A stretch of DNA of 64,000 nucleotides from Flavobacteriales bacterium (GCA_044338665.1 JBIIWZ010000010.1:4447-68446); one strand, 5' to 3'. Positions 4,500 through 44,408 are shown, numbered from the stretch's first letter. A program made the numbers and translations. The notes: generated by a model from the sequence alone, not told the origin.

Positions 4500-4560
4500 A
4501 GATAGATTTTCAAAAGGACGGCAAAGATACGTTTCTTTTTTGGAAAAACAACATGCGGAG

Positions 4561-4750
4561 CAAGATTCTTCGAAAGGTGCTTTGCAAGGTCCTACAGAAG
4601 GTTCTTCGAAAGGTGCTTTGCAAGGTCCTACAGAAGGTTCTTCGAAAGGTGCTTCGCGTAGCGACCTTCTAAAAGACCTTGCATTGCATCTTGAAACAGG
4701 TCCTGCGGAAGGTGTTTCACAAGGTCTGACGAAGGTGGGTAGCAAGGGAA
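4561..4750 (+). repeat. backbone AAGGT/ACCTT hairpin repeat (E4)
   Basis: Units ttcgaaaggtgctttgcaaggtcctacagaagg, core cttcgcgtagcgacc at 4652-4666, then ACCTT arms. Confidence 0.8.
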
Positions 4751-5235: not shown

Positions 5236-5390
5236 CCCTTGCGAAGAACCTGTTTCAAAATGCATTGTAAGGTCTTTCAGAAGGTGCTTAGCAAGGTCCG
5301 ATGTAAGGTCCCGAGGAAGGTCGCTACGCGAAGTCTACTTGCGAAGCACCTTGCATAGCACCTTCGTAAGACCTTTCATCGAAACTTCCA
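5236..5390 (-). repeat. backbone AAGGT/ACCTT hairpin repeat, inverted orientation (E5)
   Basis: Core ggtcgctacgcgaag at 5319-5333 is the exact reverse complement of 4652-4666. Segment 5247-5286 is an inverted repeat of 4663-4702 (34/40 by hand). Confidence 0.8.
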
Positions 5391-13283: not shown

Positions 13284-14089
13284 TAAATTCTTCCAACGAA
13301 CAAATTCTTCATTACTCTATTTTCAATCACGACAGCTCGAATGAATGGGTAACCTTCATTCACGGAGCCGGCGGTAGCAGTGCCATCTGGTTCAAACAGA
13401 TTCGCGCATTTCAAAAACACTTCAACGTTTTACTCATCGATCTACGCGGTCACGGACAATCGAAAAATGTTCGTCCGCTTAAAAAAGAAAAATATAACTT
13501 CGAAGAAATAGGCAACGAAGTCATTGAAGTGCTTGAACATTTGAAAATCAAATGCACCCACTTCGTTGGAATTTCCATGGGAACCATTGTCATTCGTGAC
13601 ATTAGCGAACGCGCAACAACACTCGTGAAATCAATGATACTGGCCGGAGCTACCATGAAGTTGAATGTTCGCGGACAGTTTCTCATGCGATTTGGCGACA
13701 CTTTCAAGTCGCTAATTCCTTATCTCATCCTTTACAGACTTTTCGCCTTCATTATTATGCCGAAAAAAAGCAATTCGGAAGCGCGAAACTTATTCATTCA
13801 AGAAGCGAAAAAACTCGAGCAAACCGAATTCAAAAAGTGGTTCGGATTAGTTACTCAAGTGAATCCGCTCCTTTCTTCCTTCCGAAAAAAAGAAACCACC
13901 GCAAAGACGCTCTACGTCATGGGCGCAGAAGACCATATGTTTCTTCCTTCCATAAAAAAACTCGCTTTGCGATTCTCTTCCTCTGAACTCATCGTTGTTC
14001 CCAACAGCGGTCATGTGGTGAATATTGAGAAGCCGGTGGAGTTTAATGAAATCTGTATTTCGTTTTTGAGTAATAACTCAAAGATCTAA
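13280..14089 (+). CDS. alpha/beta hydrolase
   Basis: HGAGGSS, GISMGT nucleophile elbow, and a SGH catalytic His region. The start is placed at a GTG that overlaps the dxs stop (GTGA); the start is uncertain. Confidence 0.75.
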
Positions 14090-14346
14090 CGAAGGTGTTT
14101 TACAAGGTTCTTCGAAAGGTCTACGAAGGTGTTTTACAAGGTTCTTCGAAAGGTCTACGAAGGTGTTTTACAAGGTCTTTCAGAAGGTCTACGAAGGTGT
14201 TTTACAAGGTCTTTCAGAAGGTCTACGAAGGTGTTTTACAAGGTCTTTCAGAAGGTCTACGAAGGTGCGTTGCAAGGACGCTTCGCGTAGCGACCTTCCT
14301 CAGGACCTTTCGTAGAACCTTGTAACGCGCCTTCGAAGAATCTTCC
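14089..14346 (+). repeat. backbone AAGGT/ACCTT hairpin repeat with 5 tandem 34-bp units (E6)
   Basis: gaaggtgttttacaaggt(t/c)(c/t)ttc(g/a)(a/g)aaggtctac starts at 14091, 14125, 14159, 14193 and 14227 (period 34). It is followed by the core gcaaggacgcttcgcgtagcgacctt, an ACCTT arm, and the end motif cttcgaagaatc. Confidence 0.85.
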
Positions 14347-14358
14347 TATATTTGAAAA

Positions 14359-16671
14359 ATGCGCTTCCGCCTTATCCTTCTCTTAACAATTCTTGCGACT
14401 TCGCTTTCAGCGCAGACATTAAAAATTCGCATTTTCGACGAAACCTCTCGTGAGCCCTTGCCCGGTGCAATGGTGTTCTCGAAGAAAGTTACCATTGGCG
14501 TTACAGATCTTTCAGGGACTACTAAATTGAATAAAGCCGATATTCTCGATTCAATTACCATTCGTCACATTGGTCATGCAGACAGCACATTGGCCATTAC
14601 AAATGCAATGTATGAAGCGGGTTTGAGCATCTTTTTGAAAGCACAAAGCTCTTCCACAGGAACGGTTGTTATTGGTTCATCACGCTACTTACAAGCGCTC
14701 GAATTGCAAACCCTAAGCATAGATGTCATTAAATCTACCGAACTCATTCAGCGTATTACTCCGGATTTAGCGAAGGCGGTTGAACGTTTGCCAGGATTGA
14801 CCATTATTGATGGACAAGCGAGTATTCGCGGGGGAAGTGGGTATGCCTTCGGTGCAGGGACGCGCGTGTTGCTTATCGTAGACAATCAGCCACTCATAAC
14901 AGCAGATCGCAACGACATTAAATGGAATTATGTTCCGCTCGAATTGGCCGAACAAATTGAAGTGGTGAAAGGCGCGTCGTCTGTGCAATACGGAAGTGCT
15001 GCATTGAACGGAGTGATTCATGTGCGCACTGCCTATCCCGGAAAAGAACCGGAAACATTTGTTTCAACCTTCGGAACCACCTACGACAAACCGCGCGATG
15101 CATCTATGGCTTGGTGGACGGGCAATCGCATTCCTTATCAAAGTGGATTGCAATTCCGTCACAAAGAGCGTTTGAAGAATGGAATTGATTTGGTTGTAGG
15201 TGGAAATGTATTGCGCAGTGTGGGCTGGTTGAACGGCGAATACGAAGACCGCGAACGTATCTCCTTCCGTACACGAAAAATTTGGAAGAACGGAAGAAGA
15301 AGCGCGGGTATAGATGGAAATGTCATGCATCAAAAACAAGGATTCTTTTTTATGTGGAAAGGAACCGGTGCCGACTCTTATTTACCCTACAGCGAAACCA
15401 CTTTGCTTAAGTTGAACGACCTGTGGGCCAACATAGATCCGTGGTTCACGGCCTTCGATAAAAAAGCAAACAAACACACGCTTCGCGGTAGATATTATTA
15501 CACCCTTCAAGTAGGCGGAAAAGACTGGTATCCGGCTACGAACTTGATAAGCGCCGATTACCAATTTCAACACAATACCCAATCGAAAGGAACCTTGGTT
15601 GCTGGATTGAGTGCTTCGCAATTCTTCTTCGACGATGGAAGTTTTGGTGGAAGACACGACGGGAATTTCGCGGGCACGTATGTTCAGTTCGATCAGCCGT
15701 GGAAGAAATTTCAGTTTAGCGCAGGGGCACGCATGGAGTTGTTTCGTTTGGATGCCATGGTTGTGCGTTCGCTTCCAGTGGGAAGAGCAGGCATAAACTA
15801 CGAAGCGGGTAAAAACACATTTCTTCGCGCTTCGTTCGGACAAGGATTTCGTTTCCCTTCTCCGGCCGAGCGATTCGTGAATACCAACCTTGATATTATT
15901 CGCGTTTATCCAAACCCAAATCTTCTGCCAGAACAGGGATGGGGTGCGGAAATTGGCGTGAAGCAAAAAATAAAAATTGGTGAGTGGAGCGCATCTGCAG
16001 ATGCTGCTCTTTTCTTAACACGATACAAAAATTTACTTGAGTTTTCTTTTGGTCTATGGGGCACTGAAAACGATCCGCTTATAGGATACGGATTCAAGAG
16101 CATTAACATTACCGAAGCGCAAATTGGAGGTATTGAACTTTCACTCAATGGCGACAGTTACATTGGAGATTGGAAGGTCAATCTCGGCGGAGGTTACACC
16201 TATATCTCTCCGGTTGACTTGGACATTGCACCTGAATTGAAATCGCTTATGCCCTATACGAAATACGCCATTCAATCTTTTGCTGCCGACGAACGCGGGC
16301 CAGAAACGCCTATCTTGAAATACCGTTACCGCCACATGGGCAAGTTCAACATAGACGCAGAATCGCCCGAAGGATTCACCATTGGTGCGGGAGTGCGGGC
16401 CTACAGCTATATGGAGAAAGTTGACTCTGTGTTCGTTGTGTTCGTCCCTGGATTGGCTCAATACAGAAAAGAAAATGGCGGGCCTTCAACCATACTAGAC
16501 ATCCGCGGAGGATACATGAAAAACGGACATCGCTTTACCCTTCAAATTACCAATCTTACGAATGCATTTGTAACCATTCGTCCTGCGAAGCCAGAGGCTC
16601 CGAGAGGGTTTATGATTCAATATGCCTTAACGCTCTCTAGAAAAAAGTCAAGATCAGAAATTGGTACGTGA
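14359..16671 (+). CDS. TonB-dependent receptor (carboxypeptidase-regulatory-like N-domain plus plug and barrel)
   Basis: 770 aa. Signal peptide MRFRLILLLTILATSLSAQ, plug motifs (IRGGSG, VVKGASSVQYGS), and a C-terminal aromatic-rich barrel. Confidence 0.85.
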   Translation: MRFRLILLLTILATSLSAQTLKIRIFDETSREPLPGAMVFSKKVTIGVTDLSGTTKLNKADILDSITIRHIGHADSTLAITNAMYEAGLSIFLKAQSSSTGTVVIGSSRYLQALELQTLSIDVIKSTELIQRITPDLAKAVERLPGLTIIDGQASIRGGSGYAFGAGTRVLLIVDNQPLITADRNDIKWNYVPLELAEQIEVVKGASSVQYGSAALNGVIHVRTAYPGKEPETFVSTFGTTYDKPRDASMAWWTGNRIPYQSGLQFRHKERLKNGIDLVVGGNVLRSVGWLNGEYEDRERISFRTRKIWKNGRRSAGIDGNVMHQKQGFFFMWKGTGADSYLPYSETTLLKLNDLWANIDPWFTAFDKKANKHTLRGRYYYTLQVGGKDWYPATNLISADYQFQHNTQSKGTLVAGLSASQFFFDDGSFGGRHDGNFAGTYVQFDQPWKKFQFSAGARMELFRLDAMVVRSLPVGRAGINYEAGKNTFLRASFGQGFRFPSPAERFVNTNLDIIRVYPNPNLLPEQGWGAEIGVKQKIKIGEWSASADAALFLTRYKNLLEFSFGLWGTENDPLIGYGFKSINITEAQIGGIELSLNGDSYIGDWKVNLGGGYTYISPVDLDIAPELKSLMPYTKYAIQSFAADERGPETPILKYRYRHMGKFNIDAESPEGFTIGAGVRAYSYMEKVDSVFVVFVPGLAQYRKENGGPSTILDIRGGYMKNGHRFTLQITNLTNAFVTIRPAKPEAPRGFMIQYALTLSRKKSRSEIGT

Positions 16672-16685
16672 GCGTTAGATGTTGC

Positions 16686-16873
16686 ACAAGGTCCTGTGGA
16701 AGGTGTGTTACAAGGTTCTTCGAAAGGTGTATCACAAGGTTCTTCGAAAGGTGCTTTGCAAGGACGCTTCGCGTAGCGACCTTCATCTGACCTTGCGTAG
16801 CACCTTCTGAAAGACCTTCATAGAACTTCGTAGACCTTCTGCAAGATCTTGTAACACACCTTTCGAAGAATCC
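16686..16873 (+). repeat. backbone AAGGT/ACCTT hairpin repeat (E7)
   Basis: The left arm has 24-nt units (aggtgtgttacaaggttcttcgaa). Core gcaaggacgcttcgcgtagcgaccttc. The right arm is roughly the reverse complement of the left, and the copy ends in ctttcgaagaatc. Confidence 0.85.
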
Positions 16874-25147: not shown

Positions 25148-27094
25148 ATGAAACGAATTGAATCGTTTGAAGAATATAAATCGGTGTACGCGGAAAGCAT
25201 TGCTAATCCTAATAAATTCTGGGGTGAAATAGCTGAATCTTTTTCTTGGAAAAAGAAATGGGACACTGTTCTATCGGGAACCTTCGCCGATGCAAAAACC
25301 CGATGGTTCGACGGAGGTGAATTGAACATTACTGAAAATTTACTCGACAGACATTTGGCTGAAAAAGGAAATGAAACTGCACTCATTTGGGAACCGAATG
25401 AACGTTCGGTTCAGGTGCGTTCATTCACGTATACTGAACTTCATAAAGAAGTTTGTATCGCTGCTGAAATGCTTCGCACGATGGGTGTTCAAAAAGGAGA
25501 TCGTGTTTGTATTTACATGAGCATGGTGCCTGAGTTGGTGTTCAGTGTGCTCGCCTGCGCGCGCATTGGGGCGGTGCATTCTGTTATTTTCGGCGGATTC
25601 AGCGCACGAAGCATTGCAGATCGCGTAGACGATGCTGAAGCAGACTTCGTGATAACCATGGACGGGGGACTTCGCGGAAACAAGATTATTCCATTGAAGT
25701 CGGTGGTGGATGAAGCATTGAATTCAACAAGAAAAATAAAAAATGTTTTGGTCTTCAACTACCTCAACCTTCCAACCGAAAAAAAAGAAGTAGATATCGA
25801 TTGGAAGAAATTGAAAGGAAAAGTTCTTTCCTCCAATAATTATATGAAGCCCGGAGCGACGCTTCAATCGGAAGATCCTTCGTTCATCTTGTACACCAGC
25901 GGATCAACGGGCAAACCGAAAGGCGTTGTGCACAGCACTGCGGGTTACATGGTATGGACGGCCTATACTTTTTTGAATGTGTTTCAATACGAAAAAGGAG
26001 ATATTCATTTTTGTACTGCCGATATTGGATGGGTTACAGGGCACAGTTATTTGATCTATGGACCTTTGCTGAACGGTGCTACTTCATTGATGTTTGAAGG
26101 CATTCCAACTTATCCCGATGCTGGAAGATTTTGGGACATTGTAGCGAAGCACAAAGTGAGTATTTTCTACACGGCTCCAACGGCCATTCGCAGTTTAATG
26201 TCGGCCGGAGATGAATTTTTAGAAGGAAAAGATTTGTCTTCGTTGCGCATACTCGGAAGCGTTGGCGAACCCATTAACGAAGAAGCTTGGAATTGGTACC
26301 ACGATAAAATTGGAAAAGGAAATTGTCCGGTTGTCGATACTTTTTGGCAAACGGAAACAGGCGGTGTTATGATCTCGAGTTTAGCCGGAGTAACGCCATC
26401 GAAACCGGTGTTTGCTACGTTGCCTATGCCGGGGGTTCTTCCTGTTTTGTTGGATGATAAAGGGAATGAAATTCTTGAAAACGATTTAACCGGAAACCTG
26501 TGTTTCAAACAGTCGTGGCCTTCTATGATTCGCACCACGTATGGCGACCACGAGCGTTGTATTTTGAATTACTTCAGCACATATAAAAATTATTACTTCA
26601 CCGGTGACGGCGCTTACCGTGACGAGAAAGGAATGTATCGTTTAGCAGGAAGGGTTGACGATGTGTTGAATGTTAGCGGACACCGTATAGGCACTGCTGA
26701 AGTGGAGAACGCGATTAATCATACGCACGGTGTTATTGAAAGCGCTGTAGTTGGGTATCCGCATGACATTAAGGGGCAAGGAATCTATGCGTTTGTGATT
26801 TGTGCAGAGCAAGGTGGTGAACAAGATGCGATGCAAGGTCCTACGGAAGGTGCTTCGCAAGGGTTTGAGCAGGAGATGGTTTATTCCATTACCAAAACAG
26901 TGAGTGAGCAGATTGGGGCGATTGCGAAACCGGATAAAATCGTAATTGTAAGCGGTCTTCCGAAAACGAGAAGTGGAAAGATTATGCGTCGCATTTTAAG
27001 GAAAATTGCTGAAGGGGAATTCGATGCTATTGGCGATACGACTACCTTACTTGATCCGAGTGTGGTTAAAGAAATTATTGACAAAGCGAAATAA
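25148..27094 (+). CDS. acs: acetyl-CoA synthetase
   Basis: 648 aa. Contains YTSGSTGKPKG, WQTETGG and LPKTRSGKIMRRILRKIA. Confidence 0.97.
   Translation: MKRIESFEEYKSVYAESIANPNKFWGEIAESFSWKKKWDTVLSGTFADAKTRWFDGGELNITENLLDRHLAEKGNETALIWEPNERSVQVRSFTYTELHKEVCIAAEMLRTMGVQKGDRVCIYMSMVPELVFSVLACARIGAVHSVIFGGFSARSIADRVDDAEADFVITMDGGLRGNKIIPLKSVVDEALNSTRKIKNVLVFNYLNLPTEKKEVDIDWKKLKGKVLSSNNYMKPGATLQSEDPSFILYTSGSTGKPKGVVHSTAGYMVWTAYTFLNVFQYEKGDIHFCTADIGWVTGHSYLIYGPLLNGATSLMFEGIPTYPDAGRFWDIVAKHKVSIFYTAPTAIRSLMSAGDEFLEGKDLSSLRILGSVGEPINEEAWNWYHDKIGKGNCPVVDTFWQTETGGVMISSLAGVTPSKPVFATLPMPGVLPVLLDDKGNEILENDLTGNLCFKQSWPSMIRTTYGDHERCILNYFSTYKNYYFTGDGAYRDEKGMYRLAGRVDDVLNVSGHRIGTAEVENAINHTHGVIESAVVGYPHDIKGQGIYAFVICAEQGGEQDAMQGPTEGASQGFEQEMVYSITKTVSEQIGAIAKPDKIVIVSGLPKTRSGKIMRRILRKIAEGEFDAIGDTTTLLDPSVVKEIIDKAK
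26810..26869 (+). repeat. in-frame 12-nt-periodic AAGGT repeat copy inside acs (E8)
   Basis: caaggtggtgaa caagatgcgatg caaggtcctacg gaaggtgcttcg caagggtttgag encodes QGGEQDAMQGPTEGASQGFE. The segment gcaaggtcctacggaaggtgcttcgc nearly matches intergenic copy E4 (ttgcaaggtcctacagaaggt ... ggtgcttcgcg). Confidence 0.75.
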
Positions 27095-29493: not shown

Positions 29494-30048
29494 CTACATC
29501 TGTCCGTCTGGCCGGTTATATACTATTGTCATTTTTTTTTCAAAAGCTGAAGTAGAAATTTCTAATTCCCAAGATTTGTCAATTGTCGGAAGTGCTTTTT
29601 TAGAATGGTCTAAAAACCTAAACCAACCCCGTGTCTCCTCTGTTATCTTAAAGCTCTGGTTGTTGTCACAAAATACGTCTAAGCAAATATTGTCAGTGAC
29701 ATAGTGGTCCTCTTTATATCCATGCATTGATATAATTTCTGTCCACTGAATCGATTGTACACCCTCGTTTGTTTTTATTGAAAAGCCTAAGTCGCTGAAG
29801 GTGAAAATACCGTTATCTGTGTAAATTTCTTTAAAATTCTTTTCGTTTTGATCTTTATAACCTGTGATATTTTGGTCAGAAATCTCAACTCTTCTGATGG
29901 TTGATCTGAAGAATTTTATAATGAAAAAGATTGTTCCGCCACCAAAAAAGATAGTCCCAACCCAACTAAATGCCAAGCCTCTTGAAATACCCCAAGCAGA
30001 TAAACTGGTCATCATAAGTCCAATTAATATGTTTCTTCTTGCTTTCAT
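29494..30048 (-). CDS. hypothetical membrane-anchored protein (two N-terminal TM helices)
   Basis: 184 aa. Hydrophobic N-terminus ILIGLMMTSLSAWG and WVGTIFFGGGTIFFIIKFF. Its start overlaps the stop of the upstream gene by 4 nt. Confidence 0.55.
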   Translation of the reverse strand: MKARRNILIGLMMTSLSAWGISRGLAFSWVGTIFFGGGTIFFIIKFFRSTIRRVEISDQNITGYKDQNEKNFKEIYTDNGIFTFSDLGFSIKTNEGVQSIQWTEIISMHGYKEDHYVTDNICLDVFCDNNQSFKITEETRGWFRFLDHSKKALPTIDKSWELEISTSAFEKKMTIVYNRPDGQM

Positions 30049-30485
30049 TTTCCGTGAGTTATTCTAATAACCTTGCTGTCTCGACCGTCAATAATTATTG
30101 AAAACGTCCCGCCCTTCATACCCGAAGGAAGTGTTCCTTCAATTAACCAATAATTGTCTTTGAAGTAAATTTCGTAAGGTCGTTGATTTATTATGTTTTC
30201 TTTGCCGTAAATACTGAAGAGGATTGGTTCGGCTACATTTATTGCAGTTACACTGTCTTTAATAATTGCAGTATTGTTGTGAATTAAGTTGTGCTTTGAG
30301 CTGTCGACAAGGGAAGATTGAAGTTCCTGCTCTGCTTGAACTTGTGAAGTTGTCGGCTTAAATCCTTTGCCATTGTCACAGGTGTCACTTTCGAAAACAA
30401 CAAAGTCTTGAACATGCTTTCTTTCTGAGTCGTTACAACTAACCAAAAATAATATGATCAATTTAGAGATTGTTCGTCTTATCAT
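30045..30485 (-). CDS. NTF2-fold immunity protein-like lipoprotein
   Basis: Start MIRRTISKLIILFLVSC (lipobox). The C-terminal AINVAEPILFSIYGKENIINQRPYEIYFKDNYWLIEGTLPSGMKGGTFSIIIDGRDSKVIRITHGK matches, from memory, the pattern of the Imm-NTF2-2 family of polymorphic-toxin immunity proteins. Confidence 0.5.
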   Translation of the reverse strand: MIRRTISKLIILFLVSCNDSERKHVQDFVVFESDTCDNGKGFKPTTSQVQAEQELQSSLVDSSKHNLIHNNTAIIKDSVTAINVAEPILFSIYGKENIINQRPYEIYFKDNYWLIEGTLPSGMKGGTFSIIIDGRDSKVIRITHGK

Positions 30486-30522
30486 AACAGCCACTTTTGC
30501 CAAACTGATGCTGGGAGTAGAT

Positions 30523-31365
30523 TTACTCTGCGTTACATCCATATTCTCTGTCTTTTGGCGATTTCAAACAATGTCCACTAAAGAATAAATCTAAAGTTGG
30601 TGGATTATATCTTTCGTGAGTTACTTTCATTAATTTCGGATAATTAGCTAATGCGATTTTTGCTTTTTTCAGAACAATTTCTTCCATTAAATCAGGTGCT
30701 TCCGAATTAAAAATCATTTCAACTTTGTCTATTTTTCCATTTTTTTTGAAAGTAACATTTACTATGCATGAGCTTTCTTCATCAAATTGATTTCTTTCAT
30801 CTATTGTAATTTCTTGCAGTATTAATTTTTTAATGGAGTCGGACAATCTTCTTTCTGCTGGAAATATCTGTTTGTCATTGTACTTAACATATTCTTTTAT
30901 TTCCGTATTTTTAATTTTACCATTTTCAAATTTGTAATAAATTTCTTTCTCATAAATAGACATATAGCCCATATGGACGTATTGAATTAGTTGTCCTTTT
31001 GGTTGTATAATGGTGTGATTAACCCAATTAGCAAAGACGTTTGAAGTTCCAAATTCTATTTTAACATCCAAATCAATAGGGTTTTTACCACAATAATCTG
31101 TTTGTATTCTGACTAAAAACAAACTGTCATTTTGCAACTTCCAAGTTGCGACATATCCTCTCCATAGTGCCGTGCAACTACCTTGCATTTCCTCGCCATT
31201 TATAGTCCGCGTACCTTTTCTATCAAAGTATCCCTCTAACGGATTTGAATTGATCTCAAATGTGTCTTTCGAAATAATTAAGAGGTCGCCAAACTGGGCA
31301 GTCCCCAATACCTCAGTGATTTGCGTTAGGGTAAAAAAAATAAGTATTAAAGTTCTAAGGTTCAT
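30523..31365 (-). CDS. hypothetical secreted protein
   Basis: Trimmed to MNLRTLILIFFTLTQITEVLGTAQ (signal peptide). 280 aa. Confidence 0.55.
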   Translation of the reverse strand: MNLRTLILIFFTLTQITEVLGTAQFGDLLIISKDTFEINSNPLEGYFDRKGTRTINGEEMQGSCTALWRGYVATWKLQNDSLFLVRIQTDYCGKNPIDLDVKIEFGTSNVFANWVNHTIIQPKGQLIQYVHMGYMSIYEKEIYYKFENGKIKNTEIKEYVKYNDKQIFPAERRLSDSIKKLILQEITIDERNQFDEESSCIVNVTFKKNGKIDKVEMIFNSEAPDLMEEIVLKKAKIALANYPKLMKVTHERYNPPTLDLFFSGHCLKSPKDREYGCNAE

Positions 31366-33885: not shown

Positions 33886-33944
33886 TTCTAAATTTTCGTC
33901 ATTCAATTTCAACACAAAAAAAGAATTACCATTTCTAAAATATT

Positions 33945-34210
33945 AAAAGTACAGAAATATTCTCCCCTACTAACCCCAAACACCATCAATTCTCTTCTTC
34001 CCAAAAAACTGCGCAGTTTTCTCGAGCTTCATTTTTGAAAAAAATCATATTTCACAAGGGGTTTGGCAGATTGGGACCGGAGAAAAATCCGCACAAATAC
34101 CTAGGAACTTCGTAATTGGAAAATCGGAGATTTTATTCCTGCTGCTTAATTCCTCCCGATAGCTATCGGGATCATACTTCCTAATTCATAATTGGAACTA
34201 CGTTGTTGTT
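33945..34210 (-). repeat. leader module copy D (contains the palindrome at 34003-34020)
   Basis: The first ~76 nt are identical to copy C (aaaagtacagaaatattctcccctactaaccccaaacaccatcaattctcttcttcccaaaaaactgcgcagtttt). It also shares aaaaatccgcacaaatacctaggaacttcgtaattggaaaatcggagattttattcctgct. Confidence 0.8.
34003..34020. promoter_or_regulatory. palindrome AAAAAACTGCGCAGTTTT (copy P1)
   Basis: Perfect 16-bp palindrome at 34005-34020 within module D. Confidence 0.5.
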
Positions 34211-37991: not shown

Positions 37992-38558
37992 TCATCTTGT
38001 AAAATGAAAACTTCGTGGATCCATTAACTTCCACTGATCATGAAAATCGAATGGAGTTAAGCTTAGAACATAATGCTTACGACCTATGGAAAAATACAAC
38101 TTCATATCGGCGCGAGTATGTGCCTGAGGCGCAACTTCAAAATCTTTAGATGCCGGCCATAAAACTTCCATGTCGGGCCCATCTATCTTTGGAATTATAT
38201 AATTGTAAGTAATACTATCTAAAATCGCTTTTGACCAATTTATCTTTCCTAGATCTTGTATTTCCTCATTAAAATTTAATATGAATTCATTTCTCAATTG
38301 ATTGTATACTTCAGCAGAGATACTTTCTTGCTCTACTCTTTTCACAAGCTCGCCTTGAACCCCTCTGGCCTTCATCTCGTCTAAAATCGCTATTTTCAAT
38401 TGCTCCTGAGAAACATAGAGGTAATCTATTAATTTCTCAGATTGCTGTGATTGTAATCTGCGAAAAACTTCTTGTGCCCAAATTATTGGATTCATCGCGT
38501 AGCTCGCTGATATTGAATTCAGCGAAATTGTGAAAAGAACTAGTGTTTTCAATCTCAT
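37992..38558 (-). CDS. hypothetical secreted protein
   Basis: Signal peptide MRLKTLVLFTISLNSISASYA. Confidence 0.55.
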   Translation of the reverse strand: MRLKTLVLFTISLNSISASYAMNPIIWAQEVFRRLQSQQSEKLIDYLYVSQEQLKIAILDEMKARGVQGELVKRVEQESISAEVYNQLRNEFILNFNEEIQDLGKINWSKAILDSITYNYIIPKIDGPDMEVLWPASKDFEVAPQAHTRADMKLYFSIGRKHYVLSLTPFDFHDQWKLMDPRSFHFTR

Positions 38559-38562
38559 ATTT

Positions 38563-39237
38563 TCATTCCATTTCTACATCTAAATAAACAGATAAATCTG
38601 GTGAATTACTTTTCAGTAGAGTCTTTTTCATTTTCTCTAAAGACAAGTGAACGTTTTTATTGCGATTGTTTATCCAAATAGTTCCTGTAACGTTTTTTAT
38701 TGAAGACAAATCTGGTTCATTTTCGAAATACCCATAGATGTTTAAAAAATCAACTGAACTTAACGATGAGATTATACCAGGAATACCATTCGAATCACAC
38801 TCCAACGTTAACGTTCCTAATTTCTTATCCTTCAAAAAATTTGAATCGTCCACATTCAAATAGCTTAATCCTATATCCTTTAAATCGCGACTTATTATAC
38901 TGCCTTTTAATTCCGCGTAACGTGTGGCATATAAACGCAAACTAACTAAACCTTCTATTTCAATATTCTCATTTATTATTAAGGAATCGGTTAATATCTC
39001 CAAATGTTTGACTTTGGTCTTCCCTATTGACTTTAGAATGATTGAAAGCATTTTACTTTCAGCAGGATAAATATTCAACAAAAAAATAGAGTCGACATTT
39101 TCAAGGTACTTCAAATCGTATAAACTTTCCAAACTGCAAAAAGTATAGTAGTTAAGTTCAGGCTGATTGCTCTGAGGCTCTGGTTGATTGCAAGCGAAAA
39201 GAAGTATGGAAAGGAATATTACACAACATTTTTGCAT
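38563..39237 (-). CDS. hypothetical lipoprotein with leucine-rich-repeat-like segments
   Basis: Trimmed to MQKCCVIFLSILLFAC. Repeated L-x-x-L-x-L/I-x-x-N-like stretches. The tracked N-terminal extension enters leader module C. Confidence 0.5.
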   Translation of the reverse strand: MQKCCVIFLSILLFACNQPEPQSNQPELNYYTFCSLESLYDLKYLENVDSIFLLNIYPAESKMLSIILKSIGKTKVKHLEILTDSLIINENIEIEGLVSLRLYATRYAELKGSIISRDLKDIGLSYLNVDDSNFLKDKKLGTLTLECDSNGIPGIISSLSSVDFLNIYGYFENEPDLSSIKNVTGTIWINNRNKNVHLSLEKMKKTLLKSNSPDLSVYLDVEME

Positions 39238-39291
39238 TCGATTTCGACTAATCAAAATGTGAAGTAATAAAATCAATTGTTTCATTAAATT

Positions 39292-39622
39292 AAAAGTACA
39301 GAAATATTCTCCCCTACTAACCCCAAACACCATCAATTCTCTTCTTCCCAAAAAACTGCGCAGTTTTTTCGGCCTTCATTTTTGAATATTTTCAGATTTA
39401 ACAAGAGATACAGAAGATTTGGAGTAAATAAAAATCCGCACAAATACCTAGGAACTTCGTAATTAGAAAATCGGAGATTTTATTCCTGCTTAGTAATTAA
39501 AACTGCGTTGTTGGAACTATGTTGTTTGAACTTCGTTGTTAAAATCGTCGAAGACATTCGCGAAGCATTCGCACAAAGTGCATTCGTCCGTAGGACATTC
39601 GCCTCCGGCATTTGTTCCTACG
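39292..39622 (-). repeat. leader module copy C (full length, with GAATG array and the palindrome at 39350-39369)
   Basis: It shares both conserved blocks with copy D. Segment 39533-39622 is the reverse complement of the GAATG array at 41938-42022. Confidence 0.8.
39350..39369. promoter_or_regulatory. perfect 20-bp palindrome AAAAAACTGCGCAGTTTTTT (copy P2)
   Basis: Read directly from the sequence. Confidence 0.55.
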
Positions 39623-39638
39623 GAACATTTTGCCCTTC

Positions 39639-39750
39639 AAAAAAAACTGCACAGTTTTTTACACCAGGCTTCTTTCATTTTTCCATAAAAATCAATACTT
39701 TCAACGATTTTGACTTCCTGAAAAATCCGTAGAAATACCTAGAAAAAAAA
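39639..39750 (-). repeat. partial second leader module with a variant palindrome (AAAAAAAACTGCACAGTTTTTT, P3)
   Basis: aaaaaaaactgcacagtttttt at 39639-39660, followed by ...cctgaaaaatccgtagaaatacctag, which resembles module C. Confidence 0.55.
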
Positions 39751-39873
39751 TTCAATCTAAAAAAGAACAACACCCTAGATTTCAGCAGTTTAGATTTGAT
39801 ATGAAAATAGAATGGTAATTTATAAAAATCTCTGAAATTCTTAGGATGTTGGAATTGTGCTATTTTCGGTGAT

Positions 39874-40524
39874 ATGACAACTTACGAATACGCGGTAGTC
39901 TTAACGAGCGCAACAGAAATTGTTGCTGTTGCTGCCGCTATTTTCTACAAAGTGTATAAAACCAAATTCGGTTTCATTCTGTTCTTGTTTCCGCTTAGTT
40001 CACTCATTGCCGACTCAATGATTATCTATAACAACTACGGCTATATGCCCATTGGTATGATTTATCACGTGTTTTCACTGTTCAACTCATGGGTGTTATT
40101 CAAAGCTATTCAAGTGTTTTCAAGAAAAGAATTGAAGCTTATTCTGCTTGCCATCGTTATCTTCAGTTGCTTCATTGTTCATATCGTTGTAAAAACTTTC
40201 CAAACCCAGACGCCACACCCCGATGTATTTCAAGGCATTTCCTCCATTTTCATTGCCTTTCTTGGAACTATTGGAACCTTCAGATTAATTAAAAAAGCCG
40301 ATTCGAAAAAAAACGGAATCTCTTACTATTTCCAAGCAATTGTGAGTGTCACGATTTTCTATTTCATTATGTTCACCCCACTTATAGGTTTTCATCTCAT
40401 ATACTACAATCAAATTGATGCAAGCCTTTGTTCATACCTATTGATCTGGTGCCCCTTGGCTAACATTTTTAGAAACATTATACTCATACGTCTCTTCTTT
40501 GTAGGCCGACAAGCCATGCTATGA
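39874..40524 (+). CDS. 7-TM membrane protein, translationally coupled to the histidine kinase
   Basis: 216 aa with seven hydrophobic segments. ATGA stop/start overlap with 40521. Confidence 0.6.
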   Translation: MTTYEYAVVLTSATEIVAVAAAIFYKVYKTKFGFILFLFPLSSLIADSMIIYNNYGYMPIGMIYHVFSLFNSWVLFKAIQVFSRKELKLILLAIVIFSCFIVHIVVKTFQTQTPHPDVFQGISSIFIAFLGTIGTFRLIKKADSKKNGISYYFQAIVSVTIFYFIMFTPLIGFHLIYYNQIDASLCSYLLIWCPLANIFRNIILIRLFFVGRQAML

Positions 40525-41303
40525 ACCCAGTTGAATTCGCCATCCTTGCAGGAATTGTAATTGCCGCGCTAGCACTATTGCTAGTAGGTATACTTTTCTT
40601 TGCTATGCGCAAGGTTATTCAAAACTCGAGACAAGAAGAGTTTCACAAAACAGAACTTCAAAAAGCCATTATTGCCACACAAGAATCGGAACGCGAAGAA
40701 ATGGCCAACAACCTTCACGACGACATTGGCCCACAATTGAACATTCTTGCACACAAGCTTATTGAACAAGACTCTAACCTCTACCGCACTTCCTTCCAAC
40801 GTGAAGAAATGAACGAGATTCAAGACATTGTGGAAACACTTACCCTTGATCTGCGCAGATACACCACGGCTATCTTCCCGCATGTGGTGCGCACGCAAGG
40901 ACTTATTGCTGCCCTTCGAATTACCCTTCAACACTTTCAACCGCAATGGGAAATAACTTTTCAGTCGACCATGTCTGAAGATAAGGTATTCCCCGACTCG
41001 TTCGCCCTTCCTGTCTTTCGCATCTACAACGAACTGCTAAACAACCTGGCGAAACACGCCAAACCCGGACAAGTAGATGTTGAACTATATTTCAACTACA
41101 ACCAATTCATTGTTCACATAGATCACAACGGAGATGGACTTAAACAAGAAGAATTCATGCACCACGCTCAACAAGCCAAAGGACGCGGTTGCTCTTCCAT
41201 ACTGAATAGAATAGACCAATTGCACGGCACCATTCACTTTTGGAACAACATAGAAATTTCGAAAATAACCATTGACATTCCGTATGAGCAGCCCAAAAAT
41301 TAA
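40521..41303 (+). CDS. intramembrane-type sensor histidine kinase (HisKA_3 / NarX-LiaS class)
   Basis: A single N-terminal TM helix and no extracytoplasmic domain. H-box NNLHDDIGPQL, N-box YNELLNNLAKHA, and G-boxes DHNGDG and GRGCSSI. Confidence 0.8.
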   Translation: MNPVEFAILAGIVIAALALLLVGILFFAMRKVIQNSRQEEFHKTELQKAIIATQESEREEMANNLHDDIGPQLNILAHKLIEQDSNLYRTSFQREEMNEIQDIVETLTLDLRRYTTAIFPHVVRTQGLIAALRITLQHFQPQWEITFQSTMSEDKVFPDSFALPVFRIYNELLNNLAKHAKPGQVDVELYFNYNQFIVHIDHNGDGLKQEEFMHHAQQAKGRGCSSILNRIDQLHGTIHFWNNIEISKITIDIPYEQPKN

Positions 41304-41931
41304 AGTCGTCTTGGTCGACGACCATACCATTTTGCGAAACGGTATAAAAAGCATTTTATCGAAAGACTATAAAAAGCGCTTCGACATTGTGGCTGAATAT
41401 TCCAATGGAAAAGAATTCTTGAACGATTTAGAAAATGTCATATTTGATGTGGTGCTGCTCGATTTAAACATGCCGGTGAAAGGTGGAGAAAACACATTGG
41501 AAATACTTCAGCTTTCTCATCCGAATGTAAGATCCATTGTCCTTACCCAGCTAAGTATGGACTACATGGTTGAATCGTGCGCGCGTCTGGGTGCGCGGGC
41601 TTTTCTTCCAAAAGAAGTAAAACCGTTGGAACTGAAACGCGCCATTGAAACCGTGCATGCCGATGGTTATTATTTCAATCAATTGTTTTCGGAAGAAACG
41701 TTGCAGAATTTGTCTTTTCGGAAAAAGAAAAACGAGCAATTGACCCTTCAGGAAAAGCGCGTGTTGCGACACATTGTTAACGGATCTACATCACACGAGA
41801 TTGCAGATTTACTCGGACTAAGCGAAAGCACCATTAAGAGCCATCGCGAGAACATTCATCGAAAACTTAACACATCCAATCCGTATGAATTGGCGACTTA
41901 TTGCATTCGAAATGGGATTGTTGTGGAATGA
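41284..41931 (+). CDS. LuxR/NarL-family response regulator
   Basis: Start MSSPKIKVVLVDDH. Receiver domain with VLLDLNMP. C-terminal HTH LTLQEKRVLRHIVNGSTSHEIADLLGLSESTIKSHRENIHRKL. Confidence 0.85.
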   Translation: MSSPKIKVVLVDDHTILRNGIKSILSKDYKKRFDIVAEYSNGKEFLNDLENVIFDVVLLDLNMPVKGGENTLEILQLSHPNVRSIVLTQLSMDYMVESCARLGARAFLPKEVKPLELKRAIETVHADGYYFNQLFSEETLQNLSFRKKKNEQLTLQEKRVLRHIVNGSTSHEIADLLGLSESTIKSHRENIHRKLNTSNPYELATYCIRNGIVVE

Positions 41932-41937
41932 ACCATT

Positions 41938-42022
41938 GCGAAGCAAGAATGCCCGAAGGGCGAATGTCCTATGGACGAATGCACTTCGTGCGAATGCTTC
42001 GCGAATGTCTGCGACGATTTTA
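41938..42022 (+). repeat. GAATG-periodic array (spacing 15, 15, 15, 11 nt)
   Basis: gaatgcccgaagggc gaatgtcctatggac gaatgcacttcgtgc gaatgcttcgc gaatgtctgcgacgatttt. It is an inverted copy of 39533-39622. Confidence 0.75.
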
Positions 42023-42103
42023 TTTAAGAAGCATCAACTATCATCTTCGGTGAGCAATACCGAGGATGAATTGAAAATTGATAATTAAACAAGAACGAAT
42101 ACC

Positions 42104-42763
42104 ATGAAATTTCAATTTCAAATCTTTTACTTTCTTGTTCGAATCATAACCATTGGCTTGTTGCTTCGAAACAGAAAAACGGCTGGTTTAAGAATTTGGC
42201 CTTTAACTATTTTCCTATTCGCATCTCTGATCTCAGATGCTTTAGGCTTAACCCTGTGCCAAAATAATATCGAAAACACTTTCGTTATTAATATCTATAC
42301 CGTCTTCGAACTTCTTTTCATTACTTTTTATTGTTTAGGACTGGTAGAGCTGAATCGTAACGTTAAGCTTGTTTTTAAGATCTTTTCAATTGCAATTTCC
42401 GCTATACTACTCTTTGAAATTCTCTACTTTAAAAGGAATATATACAAAGAGTTTATATCGGGATACTGTATTATATTTCAAAGCATTGTAGTATTTGTTT
42501 GCTGTCTTTCTATGATAGGGCGTTCGAAACCAAAAAACACTTCTATTCCAATAGAACTAATTGTTTTGTTTGGGCTTTTTATTTATTCTTGTTTGTGCAT
42601 TTTGCCTACCATTGCCTACACCTTGTATTTCGATTGTAACTACAAATCTACTTTTGCGCAATTCGCCTATGCCTCTGTGAGTATTGGAAATATTATTCGA
42701 GACATTTGTTTTGGGTGGTTCGGAGTTATTTTGTACCGTAATAATCGCAATGCGATTAATTGA
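42104..42763 (+). CDS. 7-TM membrane protein (same architecture as 39874..40524)
   Basis: 219 aa with seven hydrophobic segments. Confidence 0.55.
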   Translation: MKFQFQIFYFLVRIITIGLLLRNRKTAGLRIWPLTIFLFASLISDALGLTLCQNNIENTFVINIYTVFELLFITFYCLGLVELNRNVKLVFKIFSIAISAILLFEILYFKRNIYKEFISGYCIIFQSIVVFVCCLSMIGRSKPKNTSIPIELIVLFGLFIYSCLCILPTIAYTLYFDCNYKSTFAQFAYASVSIGNIIRDICFGWFGVILYRNNRNAIN

Positions 42764-42765
42764 GA

Positions 42766-43022
42766 AGGCGAATGAGCAAGCGGACGAATGCACTTCGTGC
42801 GAAAGCTTTGCGAATGTCTTCGACGATTTTAACAAAGAAGTTCCCTAGGTATTTATACGGATTTTTTCTACCCTCCCTTCTCCTCTATTGCCTGTAAAAC
42901 CTGAAATACTTCAGAAAACCACCCCTAAAAAACTGCGCAGTTTTTTAGACCGGCGAAAATTGACCGAATCTAGGGTGAAATGAATTAGGGATTGAAGTAC
43001 TTTTAAAATACGCAATTAGTCT
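42766..43022 (+). repeat. leader module copy A (GAATG array, palindrome, 3-prime block)
   Basis: Roughly 95 percent identical by eye to copy B over about 240 bp (42783-43022 versus 54510-54752). Confidence 0.85.
42926..42947. promoter_or_regulatory. perfect 22-bp palindrome TAAAAAACTGCGCAGTTTTTTA (copy P4)
   Basis: Read directly from the sequence. Confidence 0.55.
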
Positions 43023-43081
43023 TCGCCATTGATTCCAAATGAGAATATATAGAGGAGATCATTTGCAAATACAATCAAGTT

Positions 43082-43450
43082 ATGTGGCGGCTTAAAAGAT
43101 CAACAACCTTGACCATTAGAACTATATTCATATTGGGATTACTATTAACGATTGAAAACGTGTCGTTTGGGCAATCTGACTCCTCTTCCATTGGAAAAAA
43201 CCATGATAAAACTTTAAATCAAAGCAGCCAAGCTGACTCAGCAACAGTTTTTGTCTCCTTCACTGTGGAAACCAATGGTAAAATAACGAATGTGCAGGTT
43301 TCTAAAATAACGTGTAAAAAATGCAGCAAAGAATTTAAGGAAAAACTAAAATCAGAATCAATAAAAACTATCCAATCAATGTCTGATTTTGACCCACAAA
43401 AGGAGAGAATGAATTACACTCTACCCATTAAATTTGAATTAACAGATTAA
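43082..43450 (+). CDS. small secreted protein with a TonB C-terminal-like domain
   Basis: Signal peptide present. ATVFVSFTVETNGKITNVQV ... YTLPIKFEL resembles the TonB_C fold signature. Confidence 0.45.
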   Translation: MWRLKRSTTLTIRTIFILGLLLTIENVSFGQSDSSSIGKNHDKTLNQSSQADSATVFVSFTVETNGKITNVQVSKITCKKCSKEFKEKLKSESIKTIQSMSDFDPQKERMNYTLPIKFELTD

Positions 43451-43544
43451 AAAAATAACGTTGAACTCAACTTTTAATGTTGATCCAATTCCGATTTTTT
43501 GACTTCGAAAAAAAGCTGTTGCAATCATCATGACACTCATCAAA

Positions 43545-44408
43545 ATGAACAAAACATTGACATTATTCCTAACACTTTTTGCGTTGAGTGTATTGGGACA
43601 AAAAAATCCGACAGCCGAAGCGCAATCAATAGTAGCGGAAGGTAAACTTCTGTATAAATCAGAAATGGCTTCGTGGTATGGAACAGATTTGTTTTTGGAA
43701 AATTATAAAAACAGAGAAAACATTGGTGGTTACTTTTCCTATACAGACCAAGACATTGTAAAATGTATTTTCTTCTCGAAAGCAGAAAGTCCAAAAGTAA
43801 TTGGGACAATTTCTTTTGACAGCACCTTCAATGTTAAAACAGCAAAAACCGACTTGACTGAAAGAGATTATACACAAGCTGAAAACGATTTGTATCAAAT
43901 CAGAAAAATTGCATCAGACGAATTGAATACAAACAAGGACGGACTATTCAAGTTTTACAAGAACACAAGCCCCAATATAATCCCGCTGATAAACGGACAA
44001 GAAAAGAAAGTATACATATTGACTGGACCGCAACAAAGTGGTGTTATAATTTTTGGTAACGACTATTTGCTGACATTTGATAACAACAACAAACTACTAA
44101 CGAAGAAACAGCTTCATAAAAACATAATACCAACGGAATACGGAAAGTCAGAAGATGGGAAAGAAGTTGTTGGGGCAATGCACAGTCACTTACCAGAAAC
44201 AGGTGACTTTATTACAGCTACAGACATTTGCACATTAATGCTTTATGAAAAGTTTGCAAATTGGAAAACCTATAATGTCGTTTCCGAAAAATATTTGAAT
44301 ACTTGGAATTGCGAGACAGACCAACTGACTGTAATACCCATGAAAACTGTTGAAAAGATCAACAAAGACCAAGAAAAGAGAAATAGAAAAAAGAAAAAAG
44401 ACGAGTAA
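43545..44408 (+). CDS. hypothetical secreted protein with a Lys-rich tail
   Basis: Start MNKTLTLFLTLFALSVLGQ. An alternative ATG lies at 43530. Confidence 0.55.
   Translation: MNKTLTLFLTLFALSVLGQKNPTAEAQSIVAEGKLLYKSEMASWYGTDLFLENYKNRENIGGYFSYTDQDIVKCIFFSKAESPKVIGTISFDSTFNVKTAKTDLTERDYTQAENDLYQIRKIASDELNTNKDGLFKFYKNTSPNIIPLINGQEKKVYILTGPQQSGVIIFGNDYLLTFDNNNKLLTKKQLHKNIIPTEYGKSEDGKEVVGAMHSHLPETGDFITATDICTLMLYEKFANWKTYNVVSEKYLNTWNCETDQLTVIPMKTVEKINKDQEKRNRKKKKDE

Follow-up and report, generated by a model that had tools for sequence, protein, structure and literature searches.

The DNA analyzed here, a stretch of 64,000 nucleotides from a Flavobacteriales genome (hereafter the window), carries a signaling unit of four genes. 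These encode TM_A, a stand-alone membrane protein with seven transmembrane helices (7TM); a one-helix HisKA_3 histidine kinase; a NarL/LuxR-type response regulator; and TM_B, a second stand-alone 7TM protein. We propose that the unit is probably an accessory-protein-dependent three-component sensor, in which the kinase would obtain its input from a separate 7TM partner. The window corresponds to contig C29:4447-68446 of a metagenome-assembled genome of 1.75 Mb that is 64% complete, and the closest public relatives of this source genome are uncultured freshwater Bacteroidota/Flavobacteriales genomes. The four-gene composition, first described in an earlier note on this DNA, was confirmed, with all four open reading frames (ORFs) open on the + strand (Table 1).

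The kinase begins with about six residues outside the membrane, followed by one transmembrane (TM) helix (~7-28), a coiled helical linker, and then the H-box, N-box, and G-boxes. Its hydrophobic segment spans residues 8-26 with approximately six residues before it, in agreement with the earlier description of a kinase with one TM helix and no periplasmic domain. Intramembrane-sensing kinases, as defined by Mascher, reportedly use two TM helices and an outside loop of fewer than ~25 amino acids (aa) as their input. With its one segment and short outside stretch, the window kinase does not fit this two-helix definition; it works like the intramembrane-sensing class without falling under it.

Pfam recognized HATPase_c in the kinase at 27.6 bits (cut-off 26.4), together with a HisKA_3 match of 17.4 bits that lies under the 24-bit cut-off, which relatives pass. 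In a 14-member family alignment, H66 within NLHDDIGPQL is invariant, and N174/N175, G204, and G221/G223 are invariant or nearly so. NCBIfam alignments of the kinase to MctS, UhpB, and LiaS covered no more of those proteins than the last helix and kinase core, with an E-value of 6e-14 for the core match to LiaS, and DesK is the nearest solved structure; the NCBIfam and PDB matches (MctS, UhpB, LiaS, NarX, DesK) are all HisKA_3 kinases. The regulator ORF opens from a TTG at 41272, although the ATG at 41284 is the probable start, and it overlaps the end of the kinase gene. Pfam assigned Response_reg (E 9.5e-20) and GerE (E 8.3e-16) to the regulator, whose best NCBIfam matches are MctR, MadR, and NarL. 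Based on these comparisons, kinase and regulator are assigned to the HisKA_3/NarL class of two-component systems. In the H-box, HDDIGPQ (residues 66-72, 40716-40736), a Pro occupies the Gln position of the DxxxQ phosphatase motif, in contrast to many HisKA_3 kinases, among them some cassette relatives (HDNIGQ). This substitution may reflect an altered phosphatase activity.

The 7TM architecture previously ascribed to both membrane proteins was borne out by a hydropathy scan, which gave about seven hydrophobic segments in each, and by AlphaFold2, which placed seven helices in each. Lys/Arg counts in the loops predict that the N-terminus of both proteins is outside and the C-terminus inside. All loops are shorter than ~12 residues, and neither protein contains a soluble domain. 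The TM_B model, built from a 15-sequence alignment, is a seven-helix bundle with a predicted local distance difference test (pLDDT) score of 81.9 and a predicted template modeling (pTM) score of 0.80, while the TM_A model, built from seven sequences, shows seven helices and is too poor for use. Across subfamilies, polar residues are conserved within the helices, namely an Asp in helix 2 and the motif GN(I/L)xR(N/D) in helix 7.

Neither TM_A, TM_B, nor 14 relatives matched any Pfam or NCBIfam family, even at E-values up to 1-10, and ten diverse members of the 7TM family also gave no significant match in these two databases. The Pfam models for 7TMR-DISM, 5TM-LYT, and MASE found no match in any tested family member (E up to 10), a profile of the 7TM family retrieved nothing significant from PDB sequences, and a word-indexed homologue search with TM_A returned TM_A alone. 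Direct BLASTP comparison of TM_A with TM_B gave nothing (E 0.29). TM_B is homologous over its full length to P0024, the kinase-coupled 7TM protein of locus L016 (E 4e-13), and is therefore of the type that holds the kinase-coupled position elsewhere. The shared motifs, together with P0024, suggest that TM_A and TM_B are linked.

The pairing of 7TM protein and kinase is visible in the gene junction itself, in which the TM_A stop and the kinase start share an ATGA (...GCCATGCTATGAACC...), a 4-nt overlap. TM_A homologues with 41-45% identity were found in 4 of 23 sister genomes, each as a stand-alone frame of ~217 aa in the same position. These four sister species, which together with the source genome are the five genomes referred to below, have one or two TM_A-type genes, a 260-aa kinase with the 4-nt overlap, and a 219-aa regulator, in that order. 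In the three with longer contigs, the regulator is followed by a gene of ~290-314 aa with a type IX secretion system (T9SS) tail and then by a TM_B orthologue (63-65% identity). Kinase paralogues within the genus share 32-39% identity, and every one inspected had a membrane protein of 215-225 aa upstream with a 4-nt overlap and a regulator downstream.

The 7TM-kinase-regulator triad extends beyond the genus. It was present on metagenome contigs (L016, L024), in distant Bacteroidia genomes (L021, L023), and in five of the best-scoring phylum-wide loci (L036-L040), where the kinases are HisKA_3 plus HATPase_c by Pfam and where Response_reg and GerE were confirmed in the three regulator ORFs scanned. 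A narrow TM_B profile matched only 3 of 400 class-level genomes and was too poor in matches, so that a broad profile (A10) was needed; this was built from 17 diverse members and applied to 401 Bacteroidota genomes from 180 genera. A10 matched 57 of the genomes and 38 of the genera. Its 91 matches outside the source genome are all stand-alone, in frames of 209-274 aa apart from one 135-aa fragment with stops. Comparison with kinase-profile coordinates showed that at least 46 of these 91 are followed immediately, in the same orientation, by a short HisKA_3 kinase.

No fused 7TM-kinase form was found among the 91 genomic matches, and a TM_A profile searched against 1.84 billion representative proteins gave six matches, none longer than 272 aa. 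These results bear on the idea of a frameshift pseudogene, in which a fused gene would have broken recently into a TM_A half and a kinase half. Such a break could account for frames that differ by one base and overlap by 4 nt, and for the NCBIfam alignment of the kinase to the C-terminal half of multi-helix kinases (UhpB, MctS). However, the same split occurs with intact frames in sister species at 42-45% protein identity, and the phylum-wide matches include no fused form. The pseudogene was rejected on the strength of these conserved intact split frames, and we give it next to no probability. The earlier note had likened the unit to a split version of the 7TM-receptor kinases. That wording holds in the sense of a functional 7TM-kinase unit, the order of which is conserved from genus to phylum, but not in the sense of an evolutionary split of known families, given the lack of Pfam or NCBIfam matches and of a fused form.

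Many of the paralogous or distant cassettes open with a soluble protein of ~104 aa (L028:3697-4011, L021:1133-1447, L023:1111-1422, L030:1521-1841). The three sequences read share a conserved GKN...GC.G.R.Y core and a C-terminal CPxxC and belong to no Pfam family; the first ORF of L030, of 106 aa, is assigned by size and position only. The window cassette has no gene for this protein.

With one helix and about six residues outside, the kinase would be unable to perceive a signal by itself. In the sensor that we propose, TM_A would be made in fixed proportion to the kinase via the ATGA overlap, would pack on the kinase membrane helix, and would supply the input, possibly a membrane-embedded ligand, an ion, or a lipid state. 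We infer both this physical contact and the role of the 7TM protein as the sensing part. A change in the 7TM protein would be transmitted laterally to the kinase helix and, along the continuous helix, down to the H-box. The kinase would thereby set the phosphorylation level of the NarL-type regulator, which would then bind DNA at its presumed targets. TM_B is probably a second, alternative input subunit.

The components of the unit have diverged at different rates. DNA identity to three sister species (G006, G007, G013) is 55-57% for TM_A, 91-92% for the kinase, and 94-95% for the regulator, with a sharp step at the TM_A/kinase junction, where identity rises from 0.71 to 0.81 to 0.94 over the first ~180 nt of the kinase gene. 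At the protein level, identity to the sisters is 94% for the kinase and 97% for the regulator (G006 orthologue), compared with 42-45% for TM_A and 63-65% for TM_B. Five of the 15 kinase substitutions fall within the first 28 residues, which include the TM helix (binomial p ~0.02). G006 and G007 each carry two TM_A-type copies plus TM_B, and G013 has the other TM_A type coupled to a kinase 98% identical to that of G006. From these comparisons, one kinase seems to accept several 7TM partners, and the sharply higher divergence of the receptor, next to a kinase and regulator that are conserved, suggests a fast evolution of specificity. The kinase and regulator genes also differ from their surroundings in GC content (0.41-0.43 versus 0.32-0.36); horizontal transfer of the two genes, considered from this composition, was dropped because AT-rich membrane-protein genes account for most of the contrast.

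A more general form of the proposal can be put forward tentatively, as a possibility to which we give less than even weight. The 7TM proteins could be phylum-wide, stand-alone receptors, GPCR-like (resembling G-protein-coupled receptors), that signal laterally to a generic one-helix kinase. Several diverged paralogues would share one kinase, and close species would swap the receptor genes as if these were alleles, with kinase and regulator remaining fixed, in a pherotype-like manner.

Another reading treats the 7TM protein as an accessory of the LiaF/VraT/SaeQ kind, one that holds the kinase in one state (e.g., off) and does not sense. The stimulus would then reach the kinase helix directly from the membrane or via another protein, for example, a small Cys-tailed protein. 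In LiaFSR, a membrane protein encoded directly upstream in the operon governs kinase activity, and the 7TM gene occupies the position of LiaF, upstream of and overlapping a HisKA_3 kinase gene that is accompanied by a NarL-type regulator (PMC3543457). The 7TM proteins lack any soluble domain, and the ~104-aa CPxxC protein of the paralogous cassettes could be the true sensor. On the other hand, variation in the 7TM genes far exceeds that in the kinase gene (55% versus 91% DNA identity), and the 7TM genes occur in several diverged copies per kinase; they therefore fit specificity-determining receptors better than a generic brake. In addition, polar residues are conserved within their helices, and they have no sequence similarity to LiaF. 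We consider the accessory role rather unlikely.

A further explanation places the 7TM proteins outside the signaling complex altogether, as co-expressed effectors in membrane immunity or transport. The setting of the unit lends this some credit: it lies in an island rich in small secreted and lipoprotein genes that also encodes an Imm-NTF2-2 immunity protein, 7TM genes occur in multi-copy arrays, and TM_B follows the regulator with a leader of its own. However, the kinase start overlaps the 7TM gene end in nearly every instance across the phylum, which argues for a subunit arrangement and not for target genes, and the cassette is also found beside housekeeping genes, outside such islands. An effector role is accordingly improbable in our assessment.

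Several observations weigh against the proposed sensor and temper our confidence in it. Gene adjacency by itself does not distinguish sensors from inhibitors or co-expressed effectors, and the adjacency count of 46 is a lower bound only. The TM_A model is poor (pLDDT 48.6), and the folding covered single chains only. Homology between TM_A and TM_B is only suggestive (profile-profile hhalign E 0.003, probability 10%). The TM helices of the G006 and G013 kinases are nearly the same despite the different TM_A types coupled to them, so that the TM helix does not change simply in step with its partner. Finally, a Foldseek search of the TM_B model against the PDB returned GPCRs for all of the top 50 matches, but these are weak (E 0.013-0.25, TM-score 0.42-0.60, root-mean-square deviation 6-8 Å, none at E <=0.001), and seven-helix bundles tend to match each other in structure searches. 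The predicted fold of TM_B is read as a receptor-like seven-helix bundle and not as evidence of GPCR homology.

Comparison with known systems discloses partial likenesses, in mode of action to LiaFSR/VraTSR or BceS-BceAB and in concept to fused 7TM kinases such as BtsS. LiaFSR and VraTSR, which respond to cell-envelope stress in Firmicutes, share with the unit a HisKA_3 kinase without an extracellular sensor, a NarL-type regulator, and an upstream membrane protein. In contrast to the bare seven-helix bundle described here, LiaF has about four helices and a cytoplasmic domain, and searches of Pfam and NCBIfam found no match to a LiaF-like C-terminal domain in TM_A, TM_B, or the 14 relatives. 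LiaS has two TM helices whereas the window kinase has one, and the Bacteroidota unit differs from the two Firmicutes systems in having several diverged partners per kinase.

In BceS-BceAB and GraS-VraFG, contact with a polytopic membrane protein distinct from the kinase conveys the signal (bioRxiv 10.1101/2020.02.28.969956). These kinases resemble ours in being unable to sense alone, but their partner is an ABC transporter with a large extracellular domain whose genes form a separate target operon, whereas the partner here is a translationally coupled 7TM protein of 216 aa. Bce-type kinases also belong to the HisKA class and not to HisKA_3. Kinases with a fused 7TM region (BtsS/LytS, 7TMR-DISM, AgrC) likewise use a seven-helix bundle as kinase input, and BtsS binds its ligand within the 7TM domain (PMC10653868). 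In those proteins the bundle is part of the kinase polypeptide, while here it is always separate; no sequence relation to 5TM-LYT or 7TMR-DISM was detectable, the kinase class differs, and the regulators are LytTR there and NarL-type here. The agr loci contain a variable region, which the hypervariable sensor beside a conserved kinase and regulator resembles.

In SaePQRS of Staphylococcus aureus, a kinase without a sensor domain is modulated by the small membrane protein SaeQ and the accessory protein SaeP. The paralogous cassettes of the genus have a similar four-gene arrangement of small protein, 7TM protein, kinase, and regulator. The two systems nevertheless show no homology: SaeS is HisKA-type and acts with a regulator of the OmpR type, SaeQ lacks the 7TM architecture, and the window copy has no small protein. 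At the level of sequence, the unit is thus set apart from the LiaFSR/VraTSR, BceS-BceAB, and fused 7TM kinase families, with a partner unrelated to LiaF, one kinase helix, and a 7TM protein that is never fused.

Two-component systems are usually annotated by the kinase alone, and an input-less kinase then looks like a dead end. The missing input in this case appears to be a separate seven-helix protein, from a family outside Pfam and NCBIfam that is present in about one-seventh of the Bacteroidota genomes sampled, frequently in several copies. Should the pairing be functional, the family would be a new class of bacterial 7TM receptor, would explain a whole clade of "sensor-less" HisKA_3 kinases, and would offer a simple system of two small proteins in which to study signal transfer between separate TM partners.

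Table 1. Positions of the genes and repeated elements in the window.
Feature	Position	Strand	Basis or context
TM_A, stand-alone seven-helix membrane protein, 216 aa	39874-40524	+	ORF, hydropathy, low-confidence AlphaFold2 model
Sensor-less histidine kinase, 260 aa	40521-41303	+	HATPase_c, weak HisKA_3, alignment motifs
NarL/LuxR-type response regulator, REC + GerE helix-turn-helix, 219 aa	41272-41931	+	Pfam
TM_B, second stand-alone seven-helix protein, 219 aa, own leader	42104-42763	+	ORF, AlphaFold2 model
Left GAATG array	39531-39603	-	Leader (array, CTAGG box, palindrome) of leftward gene 38563-39351
Right GAATG array (41938-42031) and 12-bp hairpin (42033-42074)	41938-42074	+	Regulator-TM_B spacer, TM_B leader
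Third GAATG array	42766-42843	+	Starts leader of TonB_C-like gene 43082-43450
Perfect 20-bp palindrome AAAAAACTGCGCAGTTTTTT	39350-39369	.	Divergent region between leftward gene and operon
Second palindrome copy AAAAAACTGCACAGTTTTTT, one change	39641-39660	.	~215 nt upstream of TM_A start
Palindrome copy	42926-42946	.	Leader of TonB_C-like gene
AAGGT-ending 12-nt repeats	2400-2560, 4540-4690, 5240-5360, 14055-14340, 16670-16870, 26800-26870

The earlier note had further described the unit as flanked by inverted repeats of ~85 bp, as if it had been inserted or were invertible as a cassette. The inverted repeats are real; however, the arms (39531-39603 and 41959-42031) measure ~73 nt and are 90% complementary. 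The repeat core gave zero matches in 100 shuffles. Allowing up to two mismatches, the core GCGAATGCTTCGCGAATG is present in 16 copies in the source genome, which is incomplete, against 0-1 for a reversed control, and BLAST located copies of the GAATG repeat on many other contigs of that genome. Within the genus sample of 26 genomes, 24 contain the core, most of them without the operon. Further copies in the window lie at 42783-42819 and 54510-54546, and the third array, too, forms an inverted match with the left arm (63 nt, 94%).

These arrays are components of gene leaders with a recurring order of GAATG array, CTAGGTATTT...GGATTTTT box, palindrome, and gene. The left-arm module has the same order as the + oriented leaders at 42783-43057 and 54510-54784. 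The two arms are mutually inverted because the left one belongs to the leader of the leftward gene and the right one to the leader of TM_B. At 39499-39545, a 14-nt tandem unit (AACTTCGTTGTT-like) adjoins the left array; this unit forms a dispersed array family of its own, long members of which lie on contigs C5, C6, C9, C17, C39, and C40 of the source genome.

The regulator-TM_B spacer of the window is almost the same as the one that precedes TM_B in G006. It follows that the gene of ~290 aa is missing from the window relative to G006, G007, and G012, in which a gene of ~290-314 aa is found between arrays (window 41932-42103 versus L013:8750-10005). The G006 copy of this gene carries a Por_Secre_tail (T9SS sorting) domain, and the junction falls in the flanking GAATG arrays. 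The window has a gene of 292 aa (43530-44408), and its equation with the ~290-aa gene of the relatives was rejected on comparison. Folded as RNA, the spacer (41932-42075) forms two strong hairpins at -51.3 kcal/mol (z -5.2), compared with z-scores of -0.6 to -2.9 for other GAATG copies. The spacer RNA, as modeled, may be a terminator, an attenuator, or a stabilizer between regulator and TM_B.

At locus L027 of another genome, G009 (G009:C26:9500-17500), a paralogous module composed of three 7TM genes, a kinase, a 7TM gene, a kinase, and a regulator lies directly upstream of close homologues of the TonB_C-like gene and the 292-aa gene, with arrays at its borders. The two L027 kinases are 35-37% identical to the window kinase. 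At this conserved locus, the signaling module as a whole has been exchanged. The arrays accordingly have the look of general substrates for recombination from one gene module to another.

These findings can be set against the reading of the unit as a mobile or invertible cassette bounded by ~75-nt inverted GAATG repeats. That reading draws on the real inverted pair, on relatives in which a gene flanked by two such arrays has been gained or lost, and on the paralogous two-component module with arrays at its borders in G009. It has to contend with a repeat core that is multi-copy in the source genome and spread across the genus regardless of operon presence, with two right-hand copies and not one, and with arms that are each part of the leader of a neighboring gene. 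Furthermore, no recombinase domain was found in or beside the unit, and the five genomes do not differ in gene order or orientation. We regard the cassette as very unlikely. Since the inverted repeats are intergenic elements found genus-wide, they are not to be read as mobile-element ends; they lie outside the signaling device. The arrays do not look like the ends of one invertible cassette, and "cassette-like" would apply only in the loose sense of module exchange.

The regulator was said in the earlier note to be the only recognizable one in the island, and at the Pfam level this holds for the ORFs scanned, which were those of 110 aa or more from 28.7 to 58.9 kb. The suggestion that it controls the island by binding the palindrome AAAAAACTGCGCAGTTTTTT in the leaders is compatible with the proposed sensor. 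GerE-type regulators bind inverted repeats as dimers. With up to one mismatch, the palindrome AAAACTGCGCAGTTTT has five island copies, which precede a gene start by 65-260 nt, and one copy elsewhere in the source genome. All four sister species with an orthologous regulator have an exact copy ahead of the operon, and exact copies are present in 5/5 genomes with the regulator versus 3/21 without (hypergeometric p ~9e-4, for genomes that are related and not independent).

In contrast, G005 (96% complete) and G022 (99%) keep the exact palindrome, ~95 nt upstream of an orthologous gene for a secreted protein of 562-566 aa, with no regulator homologue at E <=1e-15, and the palindrome therefore does not depend on the regulator. 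G018 has two palindrome copies and only regulator paralogues of 37-43% identity, and the co-occurrence could be explained by physical linkage within one locus. Taken from sequence distribution, control of the island through this palindrome is a doubtful proposition. A scan for sigma-70 promoters and intrinsic terminators, which does not cover Bacteroidota promoters, gave counts at chance (13 versus 10.7 and 5 versus 3.1).

The unit is located in a low-GC island (28700-58900) in which gene modules each follow a similar leader composed of a GAATG or 14-nt array, a CTAGG...GGATTTTT box, and a 20-bp palindrome. Some leaders form long, near-identical pairs (33942-34151 and 39289-39498; 42783-43057 and 54510-54784). 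The island encodes the Imm-NTF2-2 immunity protein (30045-30542), M48 and PrsW proteases, a C92 amidase, and many unannotated small proteins, and an AbiE pair is found at 61.1-62.8 kb. The island resembles an array of orphan immunity or defense genes with repeated intergenic elements. Two segments, 38486-39355 and 43101-44056, are 97-98% identical to short, separate contigs of G007 (C122, C160), while the operon copy of G007 itself, on a different contig, reaches only 88% identity. The island is a mosaic, and assemblies break at its repeats. In the higher-GC part of the window, a second repeat dialect is made up of 12-nt units ending in AAGGT, which often run into their own inverted copy to form long imperfect palindromes.

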